Positions 1-8,791 of a stretch of DNA of 8,946 nt are shown here, in pieces. Position numbers and translations under genes: made by a program. Positions within the stretch are counted from its first letter, which is position 1. The number at the start of each line of letters is the position of its first letter. The stretch comes from Candidatus Saccharimonadota bacterium. Lineage in GTDB: Bacteria > Pseudomonadota > Gammaproteobacteria > Enterobacterales > Enterobacteriaceae. The notes under the pieces were generated by a model, which saw only the letters and a program-made list of their open reading frames with translations, had not been told where the DNA came from and ran no database searches. The stretch is from contig NZ_CP046218.1 of assembly GCF_012571345.1 (NCBI RefSeq), positions 193,500 to 202,445 of the forward strand, written 5' to 3'.

Positions 1-1094
1 GCTTTAATAATAGCAACCATAAACACACCATGTTCAAAAACATATTGTTCTGTTAATATATTTTTTTCACTAACAATATTTTCAAAACTATGTTGTTGAT
101 ACTGTTTTCTCCATGTTAATAAATTTATATCATTATTTTCCCAATCAGTTATCATGTTTTGTGAAAATGTTCCAGATATAATATCATCCATATGTATTTT
201 GAACAACGGTTGTAATATTTTTTTTAATCGCATAGATAAGTAATATGCATGTATTTTACTCATATTATCTAATCGATCCATCATTAAACTTATTCCACCC
301 TGTTTTAAGGCTTCAGTAATATATTCCCAGCCGTATTGAATTAATTGTGAAGCAGTTATAGGTTTAACATGTAGACTAATAAGTTTATCATAAAATATCA
401 TAGAAGCTGTTTGTAGCATACCACATAATACTGTTTGTTCACCCATCAAATCAGATTTAACTTCTGCAGCAAATGAAGATTCTAACACACCTGCTTTGTG
501 ACTACCTATAGATACAGCCCAAGCTTTTGCTATTTCTAAAGCATCATGATCATAATTATTATGAATAGCAATTAATGCTGGTACCCCAAAACCACGTTGA
601 AATTCTTCTCTTACTTCTGTGCCTGGACATTTTGGTGCTACCATTATTATATTAATATTACTTGGAAATTGCTCGCCTTCTTCAATAATATTAAAGCCAT
701 GTGAATATCCTATTGTAACTTTTTTTTTTAATAAAGGTTTAATATTTTTAAAAACTTTTTTATGTTGTTTATCTGGTGTTAGATTAATAATTAGATCTGC
801 ATATGGTATTAGTTCTTGTATAGTTCCAACAACAAAATCATGTTTTTTTGCTCTTTGCCATGAAATATTTTTATATATAATCGCATTCCTTGTTAGAACA
901 TATGAAACATCTAATCCAGAATCTCTCATATTTAATCCTTGATTTAATCCTTGCGCACCACAACCAATAATAACAATTTTTTTATTTTTAAGAATTTTAT
1001 TCCCTTGTTCAAATTCTTTATTTGTCATTAAACGCGATTTTTGCAATGTATTTAATTTTTCACGGAAGTTTAAAGTATTAAAATAATTATTCAT
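1..1094 (-). CDS. ilvC: ketol-acid reductoisomerase, N-terminal ~364 codons; the 3' end lies beyond the left window edge
   Basis: It is absent from the ORF track because it is open to the window edge. The reverse complement from ATG 1094..1092 reads [65 protein letters not shown] and stays open to position 1 (last residues ...[17 protein letters not shown]). This is collinear with E. coli IlvC (MANYFNTLNLRQQL...[23 protein letters not shown]...EQEYFDKGVLMIAMVKAG). An AAGG lies about 11 nt upstream of the ATG. Confidence 0.93.
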
Positions 1095-1240: not shown

Positions 1241-3097
1241 TTATTTATAGTACTTAAATGTATTAAGATCCCTAATAGCACCTTTATCTGCACTTGTTAC
1301 GAAAGCAGCATAAGTTTGCAATGCAATAGAAATATTTCTTTTACGTTTTTTCGGGGTATAAGCTTTTATACCTCTATTTTTTTCTTTGTGTATTCTTTGA
1401 GTAATAACATCGTGAGATATTTTAAGATTAATAGTACGTTGCGGTATATTAATTTCTATTATATCATTATTTTCGATTAGAGCTATTAAACCATGATTTG
1501 CCGCTTCTGGAGATATATGTCCGATAGATAATCCTGATGAACCACCAGAAAAACGACCATCAGTAATTAATGCACAGTTTGTATCTAATCTCATAGTTTT
1601 TAGATATGATGTAGGATATAACATTTCCTGCATTCCTGGACCTCCTTTAGGTCCTTCATATCTAATAACTACTACATCACCAGGAATAATATGTTTATTT
1701 AAAATAGCTTTTACCGCATCTTCTTGACTTTCATATACTTTAGCTTTACCAGTAAAAATCATTAACTTGTTAGGGACACTAGCTGTTTTCACTACACAGC
1801 CATGTTTTGCAATATTACCATATAATACCGCTAAACCACCATCTTTACTAAAAGCAGAATCATAAGATCTAATACAACCAATTTTTCTATTTGTATCTAA
1901 ATTATGAAAAAATTTGTTTTGTGAAAATGGTTGTATAGTTTTTATATTACCTGGCGCAGAAGAAAAAAAGTTTTTAATATCTTTATTATGTGTGATAGTA
2001 ATATCATATTTCATTATTGTGTCATATAAAGTTACATTCATAATATTTTTTACAGTAGCATCTATTAAACCTATTTTATATAGTTCATTTAATAAACTTA
2101 TAACACCGCCAGCTCTATGAAAATCTTCCATATAATATTTTTTTGTACTAGGTGATAACATACATAACCAAGGTACTTTTCTAGATAACATATCTATTTC
2201 TGATAAATTTAAAGATATTTTAGCTTCATGTGCTAATGCTAACATATGTAAAATAGTATTAGTAGAACCACCCATAGCAATATCCATTGTGATGGCATTA
2301 ATAAAAGCTGATTTATTAGCAATATTACGAGGCAAAACATCAATATTATCTTCTTGATAATATTGATGTGTAATATTAACTATGGTTTTGCCTGCTAGCA
2401 TACATAAGTTTTTGCGGTTTATATGTGTTGCTAATAGTGTACCATTACCTGGCAGTGCCAAACCTAGTGCTTCCGTAAGACAATTCATAGAATTTGCTGT
2501 AAACATTCCTGAACAAGAACCACATGTAGGACATGCATTATCTTCAATATTTTTTATGCTAGATTTAGAAAATTTTGTGCTACCTCCATATATCATGGCA
2601 TCAACTAAATCAATTCTTTGTTCCTGGGAATTTATATATATTTTACCTGCTTCCATAGGACCCCCAGAAATAAAAACTGTAGGTATATTTAAACGCAAAG
2701 AAGCCATTAACATTCCAGGAGTAATTTTATCACAATTAGTAATACAAATCATGGCATCTACACAATGTGCATTAATAACATATTCTATAGAATCTGCAAT
2801 AAGTTCTCTAGATGGTAAAGAATACAACATACCACTATGACCCATAGCTATACCATCATCAATAGCTATTGTATTAAATTCTTTTGCAATAGCACCATTT
2901 AAAGTAATTTCTTTAGAAATTATTTTAGCTATATCTTTTAAATGTATGTGTCCAGGTACAAATTGGGAAAATGAATTAACTATGGCAATAATAGGTTTAT
3001 TAAAATCATCATTACGCATACCAGTAGCTTTCCATAATGCTCGAGCTCCAGACATATTACGTCCTTGTGTTGTTGTTGATGAACGATAAATGGGCAT
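1241..3097 (-). CDS. ilvD: dihydroxy-acid dehydratase
   Basis: This 618-aa ORF is collinear end to end with E. coli IlvD (616 aa). The N-termini match ([27 protein letters not shown] vs [27 protein letters not shown]). Conserved blocks include [63 protein letters not shown] and ITDGRFSGG. Confidence 0.97.
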
Positions 3098-3223
3098 GAT
3101 AATCTCGTTTTATAAGTAAAAAAGTATATATTAATATGTTTTAATTAATTTTAGTAAGTTTTAATATTTCTTGCTAATATATAAAAATAAATTTTTTTGT
3201 ATTTTGTTTTTATATATATTATT

Positions 3224-4041
3224 TTACCTCTACTAATAATTACTATATTAGTAATTTTATGTATAAAATATTTATTATTATGATAAATATTTCATTTATT
3301 TAATAGTTCTTATACAACATAATTTTCATAAATAAAAATTGAAAACATACTGTAAGTGCAAAATACTATAATAAGTTATCATCCTAAAAAACAGTATATA
3401 AAACTAATACAATATGTTTTTTAATCATGAACATATTTTTGTTAATGCTTTAAAAAATAACATCTAAAATGATTTCATATATTTTTTTATAATCACTATA
3501 TTCATGATACATGTCCCTACATATATACCAATTATAAAAATCATTTCTAATATTTTATATTATCATCATTATATGATTGCTATTATGTTTTATACCATTA
3601 CTAAATTATCATATTATTTTTAATAATAATATTACTATAAAAACATACTAATCATGATATGATTAAAATAATCTTTAGTATTTACAATATTGATTCTTAT
3701 TTTATTTATATGAAATAGAATTTTGATATATATTGCTGTTAAATAATATATTTTTATAAATTCATACGTAATATTAATGTGTTTACTAACAAAAAATTAT
3801 GTAAAATAATAATGCATTTTTATATTATAAAAAACATATTTAATATAATTTGCATGATGTTAAACAATAAATATTTTATAAAGGATTATAACATAATCTC
3901 GGACTATGTAAAATAACAACACTATAATTAACTATGTATATTATAATATTCATTATAGATTATTTATATCGAATCATATCATTGTATAACTAAATTAAAT
4001 TTGTTTTTTTTTATAAAAATTAAAATATTTGCTTATGTCAT
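3224..4041 (-). pseudogene. ilvE: decayed branched-chain amino acid aminotransferase gene (ilvE remnant); boundaries approximate
   Basis: It occupies the ilvE slot of ilvG-M-E-D on the same strand, and the 970-bp gap compares with about 930 bp for enterobacterial ilvE. The track shows no ORF on either strand. Minus-strand reading of 3790..3638 gives 51 stop-free codons (VSKHINITYEFIKIYYLTAIYIKILFHINKIRINIVNTKDYFNHIMISMFL). These align without gaps to E. coli IlvE residues ~76-126 (IDELMEACRDVIRKNNLTSAYIRPLIFVGDVGMGVNPPAGYSTDVIIAAFP) with 9 identities, clustered as LTxxYI(K/R)xL. In the same frame, 3529..3484 GIYVGTCIMNIVIIKK matches GYISEGAGENLFEVKD, and 3322..3299 LCCIRTIK matches RCGPVTKR. 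A candidate start ATG at 4041, 26 nt after the ilvM stop, is followed by TAA at codon 3. There are more than 20 in-frame stops and at least one frame change near 3880..3912. Confidence 0.6.
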
Positions 4042-4067
4042 ATTAAAAGATAAAAATGATATTTAGA

Positions 4068-4298
4068 TTATTGGATCATGATATTTTTTACATCTATTAG
4101 TTTAGAAATTTGTTGTACTAATAAATGTATAGATTTATAGCTCTTAACTATAATATAAAAGATAATATTATTATCTTTTTTTATTGTATTCATATTTATA
4201 GAACATAATAAATATCCTCTATGACGTATAATCCGTATAATACGTTCAGTAATTTCAGGAATAATATTGGTGATTATATATAATTGATATTTTTTCAT
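4068..4298 (-). CDS. ilvM: acetolactate synthase II small (regulatory) subunit
   Basis: The 76-aa ORF starts immediately after the ilvG stop (TAAATG). It aligns without gaps to E. coli IlvM residues 1-76 (PEITERIIRIIRHRGYLLCSINM vs PETLERVLRVVRHRGFHVCSMNM; KLIDV vs KLVDV). It lacks the last ~11 residues of the 87-aa E. coli protein. Confidence 0.85.
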   Translation of the reverse strand: MKKYQLYIITNIIPEITERIIRIIRHRGYLLCSINMNTIKKDNNIIFYIIVKSYKSIHLLVQQISKLIDVKNIMIQ

Positions 4299-5975
4299 TT
4301 AATCATTCTCTATCATATTATCATTACTTTGTCCAGGTGGTACTAAAGGCCAAACATTGTCATTTTCATTGATTTTTACATGTAATATATAAGTATTTTT
4401 CACTGAAAACATTTTTTTTAATCCTAAATATATTTCAGATATTTTTTTAATACTTGAACCTAATATGTCAAAAGCACTAGCTAATTGTAAAAAATTAGGA
4501 TTATCATTTAATATAGTCTCACTATATCTTTGGTTAAAAAATATTTGCTGCCATTGACGAACCATACCTAATCTTTGATTATCTAATAATACAATTTTAA
4601 TAGGTAACTTTTTTCTTTTAATAGTATTTAGTTCTTGTATATTCATCATAAAAGAACCATCACCAGAAATACAAATTACTGTATGTTTAGGATAAGCTAT
4701 TTGTGCACCAATAGCTGCAGGTAAACCAAAACCCATAGTTCCTAAACCACTAGAAGTAATAAATTTTCTTGGATGTTGAATATTAATATGTTGCGCAGCC
4801 CACATTTGATGTTGACCGACATCGGTAGTAATAATAGTATTCTTAGGCATTATTTTTGATAGTTTGTTTAAAAATATAGGAGCAAAAATTTTTGTATCAT
4901 TACAATTATCATTATAATTCCAAGTATATTTTTTTTTTATTATGCTTACATAATTTAACCAAGATCTGATATTTTTAGGTTTGATCAATAAAGGGATGTA
5001 ATCATTTATATCACCCAACAATTTTACATGTGCTAAACAAATTTTATCAAATTCTGCAGCATCAATATCTAAATGTATGATTTTAGCTTTATTAGCAAAT
5101 GTTTTAATATCACCAGTAACGCGATCATCAAATCTAGCACCTATAGCAATAAGAAGATCACATTTTTGTACTGCAATATTTGCTGCTTGATTACCATGCA
5201 TTCCTAACATACCTAAATAATAAGGATCATCATATAAAACTACACCTAAACCTTTTAGTGTTACTACGGTAGGTATTTTTGTATATTGGATAAATTGTCG
5301 GAGTATGTCTACGGCATTGCTTAGACTAACCCCTCCACCTATATACAATATAGGCATATTCGCTTGATATAACATTTTATTAACTTTATGTATGTCATTA
5401 TTAATATAAAATGTTTTTTTATTTTTAATTTTAGTAGTTTTATGACTATTTTGTATAGCATTTATATTTTTAAATAATTGTATATCTTTCGGTATATCTA
5501 TTAAGACAGGTCCAGGACGATTAGATAAAGCAATATCAAAAGATTGAGTTAGTATAGAATATAATGTTTTTGGATCTGTAATTAAAAAACTGTGTTTTGT
5601 ACATGCTAAGGACATGCCTATAATATCTATTTCTTGAAAAGCATCGGTACCAATTAATGATAATGGTACTTGACCTGTAATAGCAATAATAGGAATAGAA
5701 TCCATCATAGCATCTGCAATTCCAGTAAGTAAATTAGTAGCACCAGGTCCTGAAGTAGCTATGCATACTCCTATATTTCCAGTGGCTCGTGCATATCCAA
5801 TAGCTGCTATTGCTGCTCCTTGTTCATGTCTGCATAATACATGTTCTATATTAGAATGATATAATGCATCATATAATGGCATAATGGCACCACCAGGATA
5901 ACCAAAAACTATTTTAATGTTATGTTGATATAATATTTGTACTATATATTCTGCTCCATTCATATTAATTTTCAT
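4299..5975 (-). CDS. ilvG: acetolactate synthase II large (catalytic) subunit, intact
   Basis: The 558-aa ORF is collinear with full-length E. coli IlvG. Conserved blocks include MNGAEYIV (vs MNGAQWVV), [87 protein letters not shown] and VWPLVPPG. The E. coli protein begins at the position of the second Met here, so ATG 5963 is an alternative start. GAGGT directly abuts the ATG at 5975. Confidence 0.95.
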
Positions 5976-6162
5976 ACCTCAATGTATATAATTATTAATA
6001 AATTATATGTATATTCTATGCAACATTGTTTTTTAAGAATCTAGTAGGAATATTTTAAATATTTATTTATTATAATTTAATATATATTTAAAAAATTTTA
6101 AATAAAATTTATTTTTTATAGAATTAATATCAGATTTTTTATGAAAAGTATATTATTTGTTA

Positions 6163-6235
6163 CAGGGGTGGAGGGATTTGAACCCCCAACTACCGGTTTT
6201 GGAGACCGATGCTCTACCGTTTGAACTACACCCCT
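6163..6235 (-). tRNA. trpT: tRNA-Trp, anticodon CCA; 3' CCA not encoded
   Basis: The reverse complement is AGGGGTG TA GTTC AAACGGTA GAGC A TCGGT CTCCAAA ACCGG TAGTT GGGGG TTCAAAT CCCTC CACCCCT G. It folds into a full cloverleaf with a perfect 7-bp acceptor stem and the anticodon loop CU-CCA-AA. It is near-identical in architecture to E. coli tRNA-Trp, including the U11:G24 pair and discriminator G. The downstream bases are TAA, not CCA. Confidence 0.93.
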
Positions 6236-6412
6236 ATATGTATTTATAAATAAAATCTTTTTTTTACATTATATAACACATATATTTTTTTTATCAATAT
6301 AGAATATACAATATGTTTGTTAGAAAAGTAAAATTTTTGGTTGACATTTATATTTAAGGTAGTACAACATAAGGATACTATATATTTAAACTATTTTCAA
6401 TGATATTAAACC

Positions 6413-7990
6413 ATGATAAGTAATACAAATAAATATGCATTTATTAGTGTTGTAAATAAATCTCATATTTTAACTCTAGTTAAAATATTGATACAATATA
6501 AGTACAAGATTATTGCTAATCTAAAAACGTATCTATTTTTAAAATCTCAAGGATATGAAGTTATTAATTTAGCTGACTATTTACAGGATAATGATCCTAT
6601 ATCTAATTTAAACTTATTAGTAAATAATAAGCTTTATAATGGGATTACTAGCAATAGAAGTATACAAGACATCACATTATTCAAACAACACAATATTTAT
6701 TTGATTGATTTAGTAGTTATTAATATACATGATTTTTATATTTATGATAATAATCAAGTCATTAATATTGAACGTTCAATTTATAATATTGATAATATTA
6801 CATTATATTTATTGTTATCAGCAGCAAAAAACTATAAGTATGTTACGTCCATAATCGATCATATTGACTATGATTTTATTATTAGTGAATTGCAATCTAA
6901 TTGTTTTATTTCTTTAAATACAAAAATACAACTAGCAAATAAAACTTTACATTATGTTTATTTATATATAAAAAAATTAGCTACCTTTTTTAACACGAAT
7001 CATGATTTTTTATTATATGAGAATGCAAATACAGACAACCGAAAATACAATATTAATAAATTATCTTTACAACAAAAAGATAATATACAGTTTGAATCAA
7101 TAGACTACCATCAAAAACAATTTCTAAATAACATAGAAGAATATTTACAACAAAGCAATTTACAGCAAATACAAGGGAAAGAATTAACATATATTGATTA
7201 CATTGCTGTTAAAATTATATTAGATTATTTCAATATTTTTATTCAACCAACATGTATGATTTTCCAGAAGACAAAATTATGTTCTGTAGCATCGCATGTA
7301 ATTTTAGTACAAGCTTATATCAATGCTTATTGTGCAAATAACGTTTTGATACAAAATGACATGATAATTGGTTTAAATCAACCATTAGATGTTGATACAG
7401 TAACACATATAGTCCAACATGCACATATTAAAATAATTTTAGTTCCTAATATTACACATAAAGCTCAACAAATTTTATCAAAGAAAAATATTATTGTATT
7501 AATATATAAATTAGATAAGAATTACAAAAAGTTCAATATACAGTATATTAATCAAGAGTATTTTATTAATAAATCTAATGATTACATTTTCCAGCAAAAA
7601 AACATTAATATTGTTAGTTTGCGTAAACCCACACAACAAGAAATGAAAGATATGTTTTTTTGCTGGAAAATTCTTAAATATATTAAAAGTAATAGTATTA
7701 TTTGTAGTAAAAATAATATTACCTTGGGAATTGGAAATAGTAAAACTAATTTACTGCATTCTATTAAAATAGCTATTAAAAATGCAAAGATAAATGGATT
7801 TAATATAAAGAATTCATGTATAGCTTCTGAAGTTTTTATTACTACAGAACAATGTATACATTATATAGCTAAATATGGTATTACATGTATTATACAACCT
7901 GGAGGTTCTATACATGATAAAATGATTATTAGTGTTGTTAACAAATATAATATATCTATGATTTTTACTAATATTCGCTATATATCATAA
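6413..7990 (+). CDS. purH: bifunctional AICAR formyltransferase / IMP cyclohydrolase homolog, highly divergent with eroded active-site motifs
   Basis: The 525-aa ORF is collinear with E. coli PurH (529 aa). Conserved islands include QGKELTY (vs QGKALSY), FCWKILKYIKSNSIICSKNNITLGIG (vs [26 protein letters not shown]), GITCIIQPGGSIHD (vs GVTCVIQPGGSIRD) and ISMIFTNIRY (vs IAMLFTDMRH). Elsewhere identity is low and many signature motifs are replaced (see findings). Confidence 0.8.
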   Translation: MISNTNKYAFISVVNKSHILTLVKILIQYKYKIIANLKTYLFLKSQGYEVINLADYLQDNDPISNLNLLVNNKLYNGITSNRSIQDITLFKQHNIYLIDLVVINIHDFYIYDNNQVINIERSIYNIDNITLYLLLSAAKNYKYVTSIIDHIDYDFIISELQSNCFISLNTKIQLANKTLHYVYLYIKKLATFFNTNHDFLLYENANTDNRKYNINKLSLQQKDNIQFESIDYHQKQFLNNIEEYLQQSNLQQIQGKELTYIDYIAVKIILDYFNIFIQPTCMIFQKTKLCSVASHVILVQAYINAYCANNVLIQNDMIIGLNQPLDVDTVTHIVQHAHIKIILVPNITHKAQQILSKKNIIVLIYKLDKNYKKFNIQYINQEYFINKSNDYIFQQKNINIVSLRKPTQQEMKDMFFCWKILKYIKSNSIICSKNNITLGIGNSKTNLLHSIKIAIKNAKINGFNIKNSCIASEVFITTEQCIHYIAKYGITCIIQPGGSIHDKMIISVVNKYNISMIFTNIRYIS

Positions 7991-8035
7991 TTTATAATAT
8001 AATACTTCTTATAATATTTTATATTTGGATACTAT

Positions 8036-8791
8036 ATGACAGATTGGGTAACTGGAAAGATAAAAAAAATAAAATATTGGCCTAAAGATTTATTTAGCGT
8101 TATTATACATGCTAATATTAATATGTTTATTCCAGGACAATTTACAAAATTATCTCTCAAAATTAATAATACACAAGTACAAAGAGCATATTCATATATT
8201 AATGCTCCAGAAAATAAAAATCACGAATTTTATATTAAAAATATTATTTGTGGTAAATTAACATCATATTTAAAATCATTAAAATATGATGATAATATTA
8301 TTATAGCTAAAAAAGCGTTTGGAACATTTACTATAAAAAATATTAATCCTTGTCAAAACTTATGGATGATTTCTACTGGGACAGGAATAGGTCCATATTT
8401 ATCAATCTTACAAGATGGTCAATGTTTTAAAAAATTTGAAAAAATTATTTTAATATACTCTATACCAAATATGGATTATTTTAGTTATTATAATTTAGTT
8501 ATGTTTTTATATAAAAAATATCATAAACAATTAATTATACAAATTGTTTTAACACAACAACATCATGTGAAAGATGAAAATATTTTATATGGACGCATAC
8601 CACAATTAATTTCAAATAAAATTTTAGAAAATAAAATTAATATTAAAATACATAAAGATTCTACACATGTGATGTTATGTGGGAATCCTAATATGATAAA
8701 AGAAACACAAAATATTTTACAACATGATTATAATTTAAGAAAAAATTATATTGATTTACAAGGTCATATTACTACAGAACAATATTGGTAA
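8036..8791 (+). CDS. fpr: ferredoxin/flavodoxin-NADP+ reductase
   Basis: The 251-aa ORF is collinear with E. coli Fpr (248 aa). Matches include MTDWVTGKIKKIKYW (vs MADWVTGKVTKVQNW), GQFTKL, VQRAYSY, LWMISTGTGIGPYLSIL, GRIPQLI, SHVMLCGNPNM and C-terminal TTEQYW (vs TAEHYW). Confidence 0.9.
   Translation: MTDWVTGKIKKIKYWPKDLFSVIIHANINMFIPGQFTKLSLKINNTQVQRAYSYINAPENKNHEFYIKNIICGKLTSYLKSLKYDDNIIIAKKAFGTFTIKNINPCQNLWMISTGTGIGPYLSILQDGQCFKKFEKIILIYSIPNMDYFSYYNLVMFLYKKYHKQLIIQIVLTQQHHVKDENILYGRIPQLISNKILENKINIKIHKDSTHVMLCGNPNMIKETQNILQHDYNLRKNYIDLQGHITTEQYW

Follow-up and report, generated by a model that had tools for sequence, protein, structure and literature searches.

The window analysed here, a stretch of 8,946 nucleotides from contig NZ_CP046218.1 (positions 193,500 to 202,445), carries a degenerate purH gene at positions 6413..7990 on the plus strand. 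Its 525-residue product is collinear with both domains of PurH, the bifunctional inosine monophosphate (IMP) cyclohydrolase / AICAR (5-aminoimidazole-4-carboxamide ribonucleotide) formyltransferase, and has lost most of the residues that define the two catalytic centres of that family. The same state is found in all three symbionts of the reed beetle tribe Haemoniini (Macroplea and Neohaemonia) for which we recovered the gene, where the frame has remained open and constrained. We propose, with a probability of roughly 0.6, that Haemoniini purH encodes a catalytically dead protein of the PurH fold, that is a pseudoenzyme, which is kept for a non-canonical and non-catalytic role.

The product of the open reading frame (ORF) is 100% identical to "hypothetical protein GJT87_00960" (WP_168895561.1) of the Enterobacteriaceae endosymbiont of Macroplea mutica. 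This bacterium, 'Candidatus Macropleicola muticae', lives as an obligate symbiont in a reed beetle that is fully aquatic; its chromosome measures 467,736 bp and has a G+C content of 23.3% (Reis et al. 2020, PMC7289800). The ORF has a G+C content of 21.7%, similar to that of the adjacent fpr gene, and its only stop codon is the terminal one. The remaining five frames across the same interval contain 29–83 stops each (29–66 in the antisense frames), and the probability that a random 525-codon frame stays open at such a composition is about 1e-23. An overlapping gene or RNA that constrains the frame was considered and rejected, given the stops in the other frames and a pattern of substitutions that is that of coding sequence in the purH frame.

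Homology to PurH extends over the full length of the protein, with the IMPCH (MGS-like) and AICARFT domains in canonical order, and PurH chains in the PDB can be aligned to residues 7–523. In hidden Markov model (HMM) comparisons the Pfam profile AICARFT_IMPCHas (PF01808) matched residues 137–456 with 160.6 bits and the MGS-like domain (PF02142) gave 18.9 bits, which is under its gathering score of 24.1. The NCBIfam equivalogs TIGR00355 and NF002049 gave 290 and 291 bits, reaching neither the cut-off of 528 nor that of 402. These scores are around half of those for the canonical PurH proteins of Plateumaris, Buchnera and Wigglesworthia (548–616 bits with TIGR00355 and 608–668 bits with NF002049), and the name "hypothetical protein" at NCBI arises because the equivalog scores fall below the cut-offs. 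An AlphaFold2 model of the protein has a mean predicted local distance difference test (pLDDT) score of 84.5, with low values limited to residues 63–67, 111–114, 204–228 and 380–384, which belong to loops of the former active sites and to the linker. The top Foldseek matches of this model are all PurH/ATIC, with E-values down to 1e-34. The global template-modelling (TM) score reaches no more than ~0.49, since the two domains are arranged differently in the monomer model and in the crystal dimers, and the N-terminal domain alone gives 0.87 against ForH; hence we used the Foldseek result solely to confirm the fold family.

We fixed the register of the comparison by aligning the protein without gaps to human and avian ATIC; residue n of the N-terminal half then corresponds to human residue n-2, and the C-terminal blocks were aligned to avian Asn432, Phe542, Asp547 and Arg589. 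All motif coordinates that follow are on the plus strand. In the cyclohydrolase half the SVSDK motif, which we take to be the phosphate-binding loop, is replaced by SVVNK (residues 12–16, 6446..6460), with Val14 at the Ser12 position and the Lys14 equivalent kept. ANLKT (residues 35–39, 6515..6529) stands in place of S(T/S)GGT, both glycines being lost and the Thr37 equivalent kept. The GRVKTLHPK(I/V)HGG segment reads NLNLLVNNKLYNG (residues 65–77, 6605..6643), a low-confidence loop in the model, where Arg64, Lys66 and Thr67 have become Leu66, Leu68 and Leu69. NLYPF is replaced by NIHDF (residues 104–108, 6722..6736), with His106 at the position of Tyr104. In the segment IDNITL...SAAKN (residues 126–140, 6788..6832; IDNITL at 6788-6805 and SAAKN at 6818-6832) the Gly-Gly of IDIGG is lost and the equivalents of Asp125, Lys137 and Asn138 are retained as D127, K139 and N140. 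We take Arg64 and Thr67 to line the cyclohydrolase pocket and Asp125, Lys137 and Asn138 to lie in its active site. Lys66 and Tyr104 are conserved active-site residues of the cyclohydrolase (PMC9525906). Among Lys66, Tyr104, Asp125 and Lys137, two of the four are thus lost (Leu68, His106) and two are kept (Asp127, Lys139).

The transformylase half is altered from its beginning, where FESIDYH (residues 227–233, 7091..7111) replaces YGENPHQ and the Arg207 equivalent is Gln226. C-MIFQKTKL-C (residues 281–290, 7253..7282) replaces C-VIVKHANP-C, whose Lys-His pair we take to be human K266/H267. At these two positions the protein has Gln285-Lys286 (nucleotides 7265-7270), and the columns are 100% K and 100% H in 117 reference sequences. 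The pair, numbered Lys267/His268 in C. neoformans and avian enzymes, comprises key catalytic residues of the transformylase (PMC9525906). SAFGG is replaced by LIQND (residues 312–316, 7346..7360) followed by a one-residue insertion. In the segment 7685..7756, KSN is kept (residues 425–427), N427 being the equivalent of human Asn431, and is followed by GIGNSKTNLL (residues 439–448, 7727-7756) in place of GIGAGQMSRV, with loss of the Ser450 and Arg451 equivalents. SEVFITTEQ (residues 472–480, 7826..7852, of which SEVFITT occupies 7826-7846) replaces SDAFFPFRD; here F475 preserves avian Phe542 (human Phe541) and the equivalent of avian Asp547 (human Asp546) is Gln480. A C-terminal island running from PGGSIHD (residues 496–502) to MIFTNIR (7898..7978) is well conserved and is kept in the three Haemoniini symbionts, and Arg522, the equivalent of human Arg588, is retained. 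Asn431, Phe541 and Arg588 are presumably residues of the transformylase pocket. Over both halves, the binding loops SVSDK, STGGT, GRVKTLHP, IDIGG, RYGENPHQ, SAFGG, GIGAGQxSR and SDAFFPFRD are all altered, and 9 of 16 invariant glycines are lost in all three Haemoniini.

An earlier note on this DNA, made by eye from the letters, had described a full-length collinear PurH homologue stripped of catalytic and ligand-binding motifs in both halves, with the catalytic Lys-His reading Gln-Lys. The alignments to human and avian ATIC bear this out: its register was correct, the catalytic residues do not reappear under a rigorous alignment, the replacements that it listed are present where it placed them, and SAAKN is kept. 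Two details need amending. The loss of SAFGG stands, and the replacement is LIQND rather than the IQNDM it gave; GIGNSKTNLL was read correctly, and the coordinates assigned to it (7736..7753) cover only its inner six residues. The profile comparison that the note had proposed gave the Pfam scores above, with the MGS-like domain below gathering, and the catalytic Lys-His columns are indeed lost.

The extent of the loss was measured over 112 conserved columns, each with at least 95% of one residue, in an alignment of 117 diverse PurH sequences including those of Buchnera, Wigglesworthia and Blochmannia. The purH-like protein retains 55 of the 112 (49%), and every reference retains at least 103 (median 112). 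Buchnera and Wigglesworthia PurH keep at least 104, and with two Plateumaris orthologues included none of the 119 PurH compared falls under 103. The two halves are hit equally, with 18 of 37 columns retained in the cyclohydrolase and 37 of 75 in the transformylase. As an intact control, fpr retains 53 of 55 conserved columns (96%) although its NCBIfam score of 273 bits also lies below the equivalog cut-off of 390, and several fpr orthologues are named merely 'FAD-binding oxidoreductase'. Hence a low HMM score is not in itself a sign of decay in AT-rich symbionts, whereas counts of conserved columns discriminate. Because the adjacent fpr keeps its columns, the erosion is specific to purH. Pure AT mutational pressure, which the earlier note had already judged insufficient, was rejected as the cause on the strength of the fpr count and of the Buchnera and Wigglesworthia PurH.

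Close relatives of the protein in a collection of 5.8 billion proteins are two only, from the symbionts of M. appendiculata (86% identity) and Neohaemonia nigricornis (55%). We gathered the syntenic loci of nine Donaciinae symbionts via Fpr homologues and their contigs; a contig scan with IlvG for such loci returned unrelated bacteria only (at most 59% identity). All three Haemoniini symbionts have an open collinear ORF of 524–525 codons, and each protein retains exactly 55 of the 112 columns. Since 49 columns are lost in all three lineages, 22 of them with an identical replacement, the loss of motifs is old and mostly preceded the split of Macroplea and Neohaemonia. At the Lys-His positions M. 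mutica has Q-K, M. appendiculata Q-N and Neohaemonia N-K, and the Tyr104 position is His, Tyr and Asn respectively. The three proteins agree at half of all positions, which are spread across both domains; identity is lowest where the GRVKTLHP and NLYPF loops used to be and in the interdomain linker.

Other reed beetle symbionts show different fates for the gene. The symbionts of Plateumaris pusilla and P. sericea encode a canonical PurH, syntenic between ilvG and fpr, which retains KH, IDIGG, GIGAGQMSR and SDAFFPFRD as well as 103–104 of the 112 columns, and scores 563–566 bits with TIGR00355. In P. rustica (locus L087, ~8440-9890), P. consimilis (L083, ~8285-9885) and P. braccata (L086, ~8680-9710) purH is frameshifted or heavily decayed; the published orthologue table lists purH as present in P. 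consimilis, where the locus that we found is decayed. The ilvG-fpr interval is only 680–790 bp in Donacia tomentosa (L088, 9213-10000) and D. semicuprea (L089, 9324-10000), and no purH similarity was detectable in these two spacers. The gene is wholly deleted in Donacia symbionts.

To ask how the surviving frame has evolved, we estimated dN/dS (omega) by pairwise maximum likelihood under the GY94 model with F3x4 codon frequencies and a likelihood-ratio test; YN00 was unusable for saturated pairs and NG86 underestimates dS here. Between M. mutica and M. appendiculata, omega for purH is 0.126, with a likelihood-ratio statistic of 113 against omega = 1 (p = 2e-26). In the same pair, a comparison that the earlier note had suggested, the neighbouring genes give 0.043 (ilvD), 0.055 (ilvM), 0.058 (ilvG) and 0.076 (fpr), while the NG86 values are 0.22 for purH and 0.08–0.21 for the neighbours. 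The 163 nucleotide differences in purH are split 55/25/83 over codon positions 1/2/3. Neutral AT-biased simulations with 163 substitutions gave 115–126 changed codons (standard deviation 5) and 11–13 stops against an observed 74 and 0, which places the amino-acid changes 8–10 standard deviations under the neutral expectation.

The remnant of ilvE in the same window (3098..4067, minus strand) is a true pseudogene and provides a neutral yardstick; its loss, specific to Macroplea, has already been reported (Reis et al. 2020). Between the two Macroplea symbionts purH is 89.7% identical with no indels in 1575 nucleotides, whereas the ilvE remnant is 84.2% identical with 12 gap events in ~870 nucleotides. 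The remnant has 14.6% G+C and 29–36 stops in each frame, consistent with the richness in stops that the earlier note had remarked upon. At 0.05 neutral substitutions per site, ~6 stops would be expected in purH and the probability that the frame is still open would be ~0.001. Neither the 525 codons of the M. mutica gene nor the two orthologues contain an internal stop or a frameshift, and the gene does not evolve neutrally. The argument that a stop-free frame speaks against long-standing neutrality therefore holds, but the suggestion of a very recently relaxed gene or cryptic pseudogene, also made in the earlier note, does not: the losses are shared by three lineages, omega is 0.126 and there are no indels.

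Between Macroplea and Neohaemonia dS is saturated (3 to >10), and only dN and identity were compared across the genera. On this measure purH (dN 0.32, amino-acid identity 53–56%) evolves like tpiA (0.32) and degP (0.31). We fitted branch lengths to protein distances for purH and its neighbours, and found that the ratio of the purH rate to the neighbour rate was 3.1–4.4 on the branch between Haemoniini and Plateumaris, 1.8–2.4 on the later Haemoniini branches and ~1.1 on the Plateumaris tips. There was thus a burst of change, after which purH came under renewed, somewhat looser but steady constraint. For the neighbouring proteins, the two Haemoniini genera lie at a distance of 0.31 from each other, not far short of the 0.37 that separates Haemoniini from Plateumaris, and the crown of the Donaciinae is dated to 75–100 million years (Reis 2020, PMC7289800). 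Constraint on purH has, we infer, lasted several tens of millions of years.

The gene is also transcribed. In published RNA sequencing (RNA-seq) of the M. mutica symbiont, purH (WP_168895561.1, annotated K00602) has a baseMean of 902 and no significant difference between larvae and adults (PMC12508126). The values for fpr (597), tpiA (564), lysS (403) and clpP (905), which like that of purH are without normalisation for gene length, come from the same study (PMC12508126) and put purH mRNA at ordinary levels, comparable to those of neighbouring genes. Several antisense transcripts to GJT87_RS00960 are listed in that paper at low abundance (baseMean ~1-2). Our own promoter scan was uninformative in 21% G+C DNA, with 27 promoter-like sites against a chance expectation of 29.6.

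What is missing is a use for the product of the canonical reaction. All 26 symbiont genomes have the his genes as well as folD, glyA and fmt, whereas purA is limited to Plateumaris and purB to P. pusilla and P. sericea (Supplementary Data 1 of Reis 2020). The genomes that carry purB are exactly the two with an intact canonical purH. A search of the same table for the term 'IMP dehydrogenase' gave no entry for guaB, and the table shows neither of the IMP-consuming routes (purA with purB, or guaB with guaA) in the M. mutica symbiont. With the downstream steps gone, canonical purH becomes dispensable and visibly decays, and in the sister lineages it falls apart quickly; the exception is Haemoniini.

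Collectively these data show that key catalytic residues of both centres and nearly all of the Gly-rich nucleotide- and folate-binding loops were lost, and that this loss is ancestral to the three Haemoniini lineages; to judge from the literature, the symbiont was by then already without the IMP-using enzymes purA and purB. The gene was afterwards spared further decay: it is transcribed at ordinary levels, its frame is full length and free of indels in three lineages, and purifying selection has acted along its entire amino-acid sequence, which changes about twice as fast as those of its neighbours. AICAR, a by-product of histidine synthesis, would no longer be converted to IMP, and the folded two-domain body of PurH would be kept for another task. 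Most likely the protein binds a nucleotide-like ligand or a protein partner without catalysis, and the surviving pocket residues D127, K139, N140, N427, F475 and R522 may serve as ligand contacts. The protein has the descent expected of a pseudoenzyme, from an active family but without its essential catalytic residues, and after that loss it has been under purifying selection in three lineages with omega far below 1. Of the three explanations offered in the earlier note, retention for a non-catalytic or partial function is the one best supported. We consider the odds slightly better than even that selection has kept a single-copy PurH fold with both centres dead for tens of millions of years in a genome of ~0.47 Mb, which implies a new function peculiar to the symbionts of the Haemoniini, beetles that are fully aquatic. 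It could be to bind or buffer AICAR/ZMP, to catalyse some new reaction or to act as a structural partner.

Several points weigh against this proposal. The loss of AICAR-to-IMP activity is deduced from sequence, and the surviving residues D127, K139, N140, N427, F475 and R522 possibly leave weak or altered catalysis. The gene neighbourhood holds no pointer to a non-catalytic role. The alignment used by AlphaFold is dominated by canonical PurH, so that the model gives the kept fold weak and not independent support, and for the absence of purA and purB our source is a published table rather than the genome itself. With dS saturated between genera, omega is reliable for the Macroplea pair only, and site-level inference from three Haemoniini sequences is thin. 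Furthermore, when set against the divergence of the ilvE remnant (~0.16-0.2), constraint on purH could be as weak as dN/K ~0.35, yet this is still far from neutrality.

The alternative that survives best, though we regard it as unlikely, is that the protein is a neofunctionalised enzyme whose scaffold took on a new catalytic activity in the ancestor of the Haemoniini, the burst on the stem branch being an adaptive remodelling of the pocket. A rate burst followed by renewed constraint is what such a history would leave. Furthermore, the 22 of 49 replaced invariant positions that are the same in three lineages include G38K, P107D, G228E, E340K and Q444K, many replacements require two or three nucleotide changes, some of them against the AT bias, and D127, K139 and N140 are kept. 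However, the old catalytic positions have not become fixed for anything new (Q-K, Q-N and N-K at the Lys-His pair; H, Y and N at Tyr104), and the formerly invariant columns are identical in the three proteins at 45%, compared with 50% on average. The replacements mostly lower codon G+C from 1.0 to ~0.5, as happens under relaxed constraint, and the Gly-rich ligand loops have been destroyed rather than reshaped.

Improbable, in our view, is an explanation in which the protein has no function and the frame is translated because fpr (and tpiA) need the purH transcript; stops would then cause polarity, and missense changes would be filtered by misfolding only. The gap between purH and fpr is 45 bp in both Macroplea symbionts (7991..8035 in the window; M. 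appendiculata L001 11579-11623) and 65 bp in Neohaemonia (L082 9936-10000), against 129–139 bp in the Plateumaris symbionts with canonical purH (L084 9862-10000; L085 9872-10000), and with so short a spacer fpr could be co-transcribed with purH in Haemoniini. Our scan found no terminator-like site between the two genes, rho is present and expressed, and constraint is diffuse along the whole length of purH while sparing the catalytic sites. Against this, three Plateumaris symbionts carry a frameshifted purH directly upstream of an fpr that is intact, and the gene is deleted in Donacia, with no harm to fpr in either case. An omega of 0.13, and a dN equal to that of tpiA and degP, exceed the constraint usually produced by avoidance of misfolding, and as a matter of general knowledge C-poor RNA of 21% G+C is a poor substrate for Rho.

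It is more improbable still that PurH continues to work as in Buchnera, its active site having diverged, and turns the AICAR made during histidine synthesis into IMP. In favour of this, the gene is collinear over its full length, it is transcribed and purifying selection acts on it; the retained his pathway yields AICAR, and 10-formyl-tetrahydrofolate could be supplied via folD, glyA and fmt. A truncated route from AICAR to purines is also known in Buchnera and Blochmannia (PMC2649895). However, the equivalents of Lys-His, Lys66, Arg64, Thr67, Arg207, Ser450, Arg451 and Asp546 and all of the Gly loops are lost with no conserved substitute, and not one of the 119 PurH compared, Buchnera included, falls as low. 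With purA, purB and guaB absent, IMP would be without use in the cell, and 18 Donacia symbionts with the same his pathway manage without purH. The earlier note had also offered an enzyme with a remodelled active site; this finds little favour here, as the replacements differ between lineages and purA and purB are absent.

That purH is a neutrally decaying pseudogene which has yet to acquire a stop would agree with its lost catalytic motifs, its NCBI label and the vanished context of the canonical pathway, but is refuted by the frame kept independently in three lineages, its low probability of being open, an omega far below 1, the absence of indels against 12 in the ilvE remnant, and the deficit of amino-acid changes in the simulations.

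The pseudoenzyme reading can be set beside known systems. With PurH/ATIC (PF01808 + PF02142; TIGR00355) the Haemoniini protein shares full-length homology, domain order, near-gapless collinearity and predicted fold, and its gene occupies the same ilvG-fpr syntenic position as that of Plateumaris. Unlike PurH/ATIC, it keeps only 49% of the invariant columns, is without the Lys-His, Lys66 and Tyr104 equivalents and most ligand loops, and in the M. mutica symbiont scores about half of the equivalog cut-off. As judged from its sequence, the M. mutica symbiont protein is a member of the PurH homology family that would fail the functional definition of that family, and it fits the operational definition of a pseudoenzyme. 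Known pseudoenzymes, among them pseudokinases and the beetle GH28 pseudoenzymes cited in PMC12508126, likewise share homology with active enzymes, have replaced catalytic residues and show conservation across lineages as well as expression. The Haemoniini case differs in that it arose without duplication, in a 0.47-Mb genome without an active copy.

In Buchnera and Blochmannia, which are also histidine-producing insect symbionts whose early purine steps are gone, an orphan purH is kept, and through it AICAR, formed alongside histidine, enters a truncated purine pathway (PMC2649895, PMC7360925). This model fits P. pusilla and P. sericea, which have a canonical PurH together with purA and purB. 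In contrast, Haemoniini have neither purA and purB nor the catalytic residues of PurH, and so the logic of AICAR recycling does not apply to them. The decayed purH genes of Plateumaris and the ilvE remnant belong to the same genome family and mutational regime and have likewise lost their canonical need. They carry frameshifts, stops, indels and very low G+C (14.6% in the ilvE remnant), whereas Haemoniini purH, at 21.7% G+C, shows no such lesions.

The remainder of the window is composed of familiar genes. On the minus strand lie a partial ilvC (1..1094), ilvD (1241..3097), ilvM (4068..4298) and ilvG (4299..5975), the ilvE remnant falling between ilvD and ilvM. A 437-bp spacer (5976..6412), 91% identical to that of M. 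appendiculata, separates ilvG from purH and presumably carries divergent promoters. Downstream of purH on the plus strand are fpr (8036..8791) and the start of tpiA (8834 onwards). Three plus-strand ORFs antisense to ilvC and ilvD (619..942, 1914..2120 and 2382..2840; 68–152 residues) are mechanical calls within genes that are well conserved, and most likely spurious. In the wider set of loci, all five from Plateumaris (L083 564-1151, L084 511-1113, L085 423-1025, L086 867-1454 and L087 575-1168) carry a gene with a SIS_2 domain between carA and ilvC, which those from Haemoniini and Donacia lack. In D. semicuprea (L089 ~8950-9040 and ~6790-6890) ilvG, and apparently ilvE likewise, seemed to be split; for ilvG this was rejected as biology, the break coinciding with a masked run of N.

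The degeneration of purH has attracted no comment in either Reis et al. 2020 or the 2025 transcriptome paper (PMC12508126), one of which lists the gene as "IMP cyclohydrolase / AICAR formyltransferase" and the other as "purH", and our text search of the literature on pseudoenzymes in endosymbionts returned nothing related. Annotation based on KEGG or RAST also gives purH (K00602), so that metabolic reconstructions which credit the symbiont with conversion of AICAR to IMP are probably wrong; conversely, the "hypothetical protein" of NCBI conceals the homology to purH.

Reed beetle symbionts thus present four states of purH: canonical in P. pusilla and P. sericea, decaying in three Plateumaris, deleted in Donacia, and "dead but kept" in Haemoniini. 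This series is a natural experiment that makes the question testable by comparison. Tiny symbiont genomes are expected to keep only genes that are used, and a dead enzyme under purifying selection in three lineages conflicts with that expectation. The retention of a dead PurH suggests that the PurH fold has a function so far unrecognised and, if true, would add to the few documented cases in which a pseudoenzyme originated without duplication in an extremely reduced genome.

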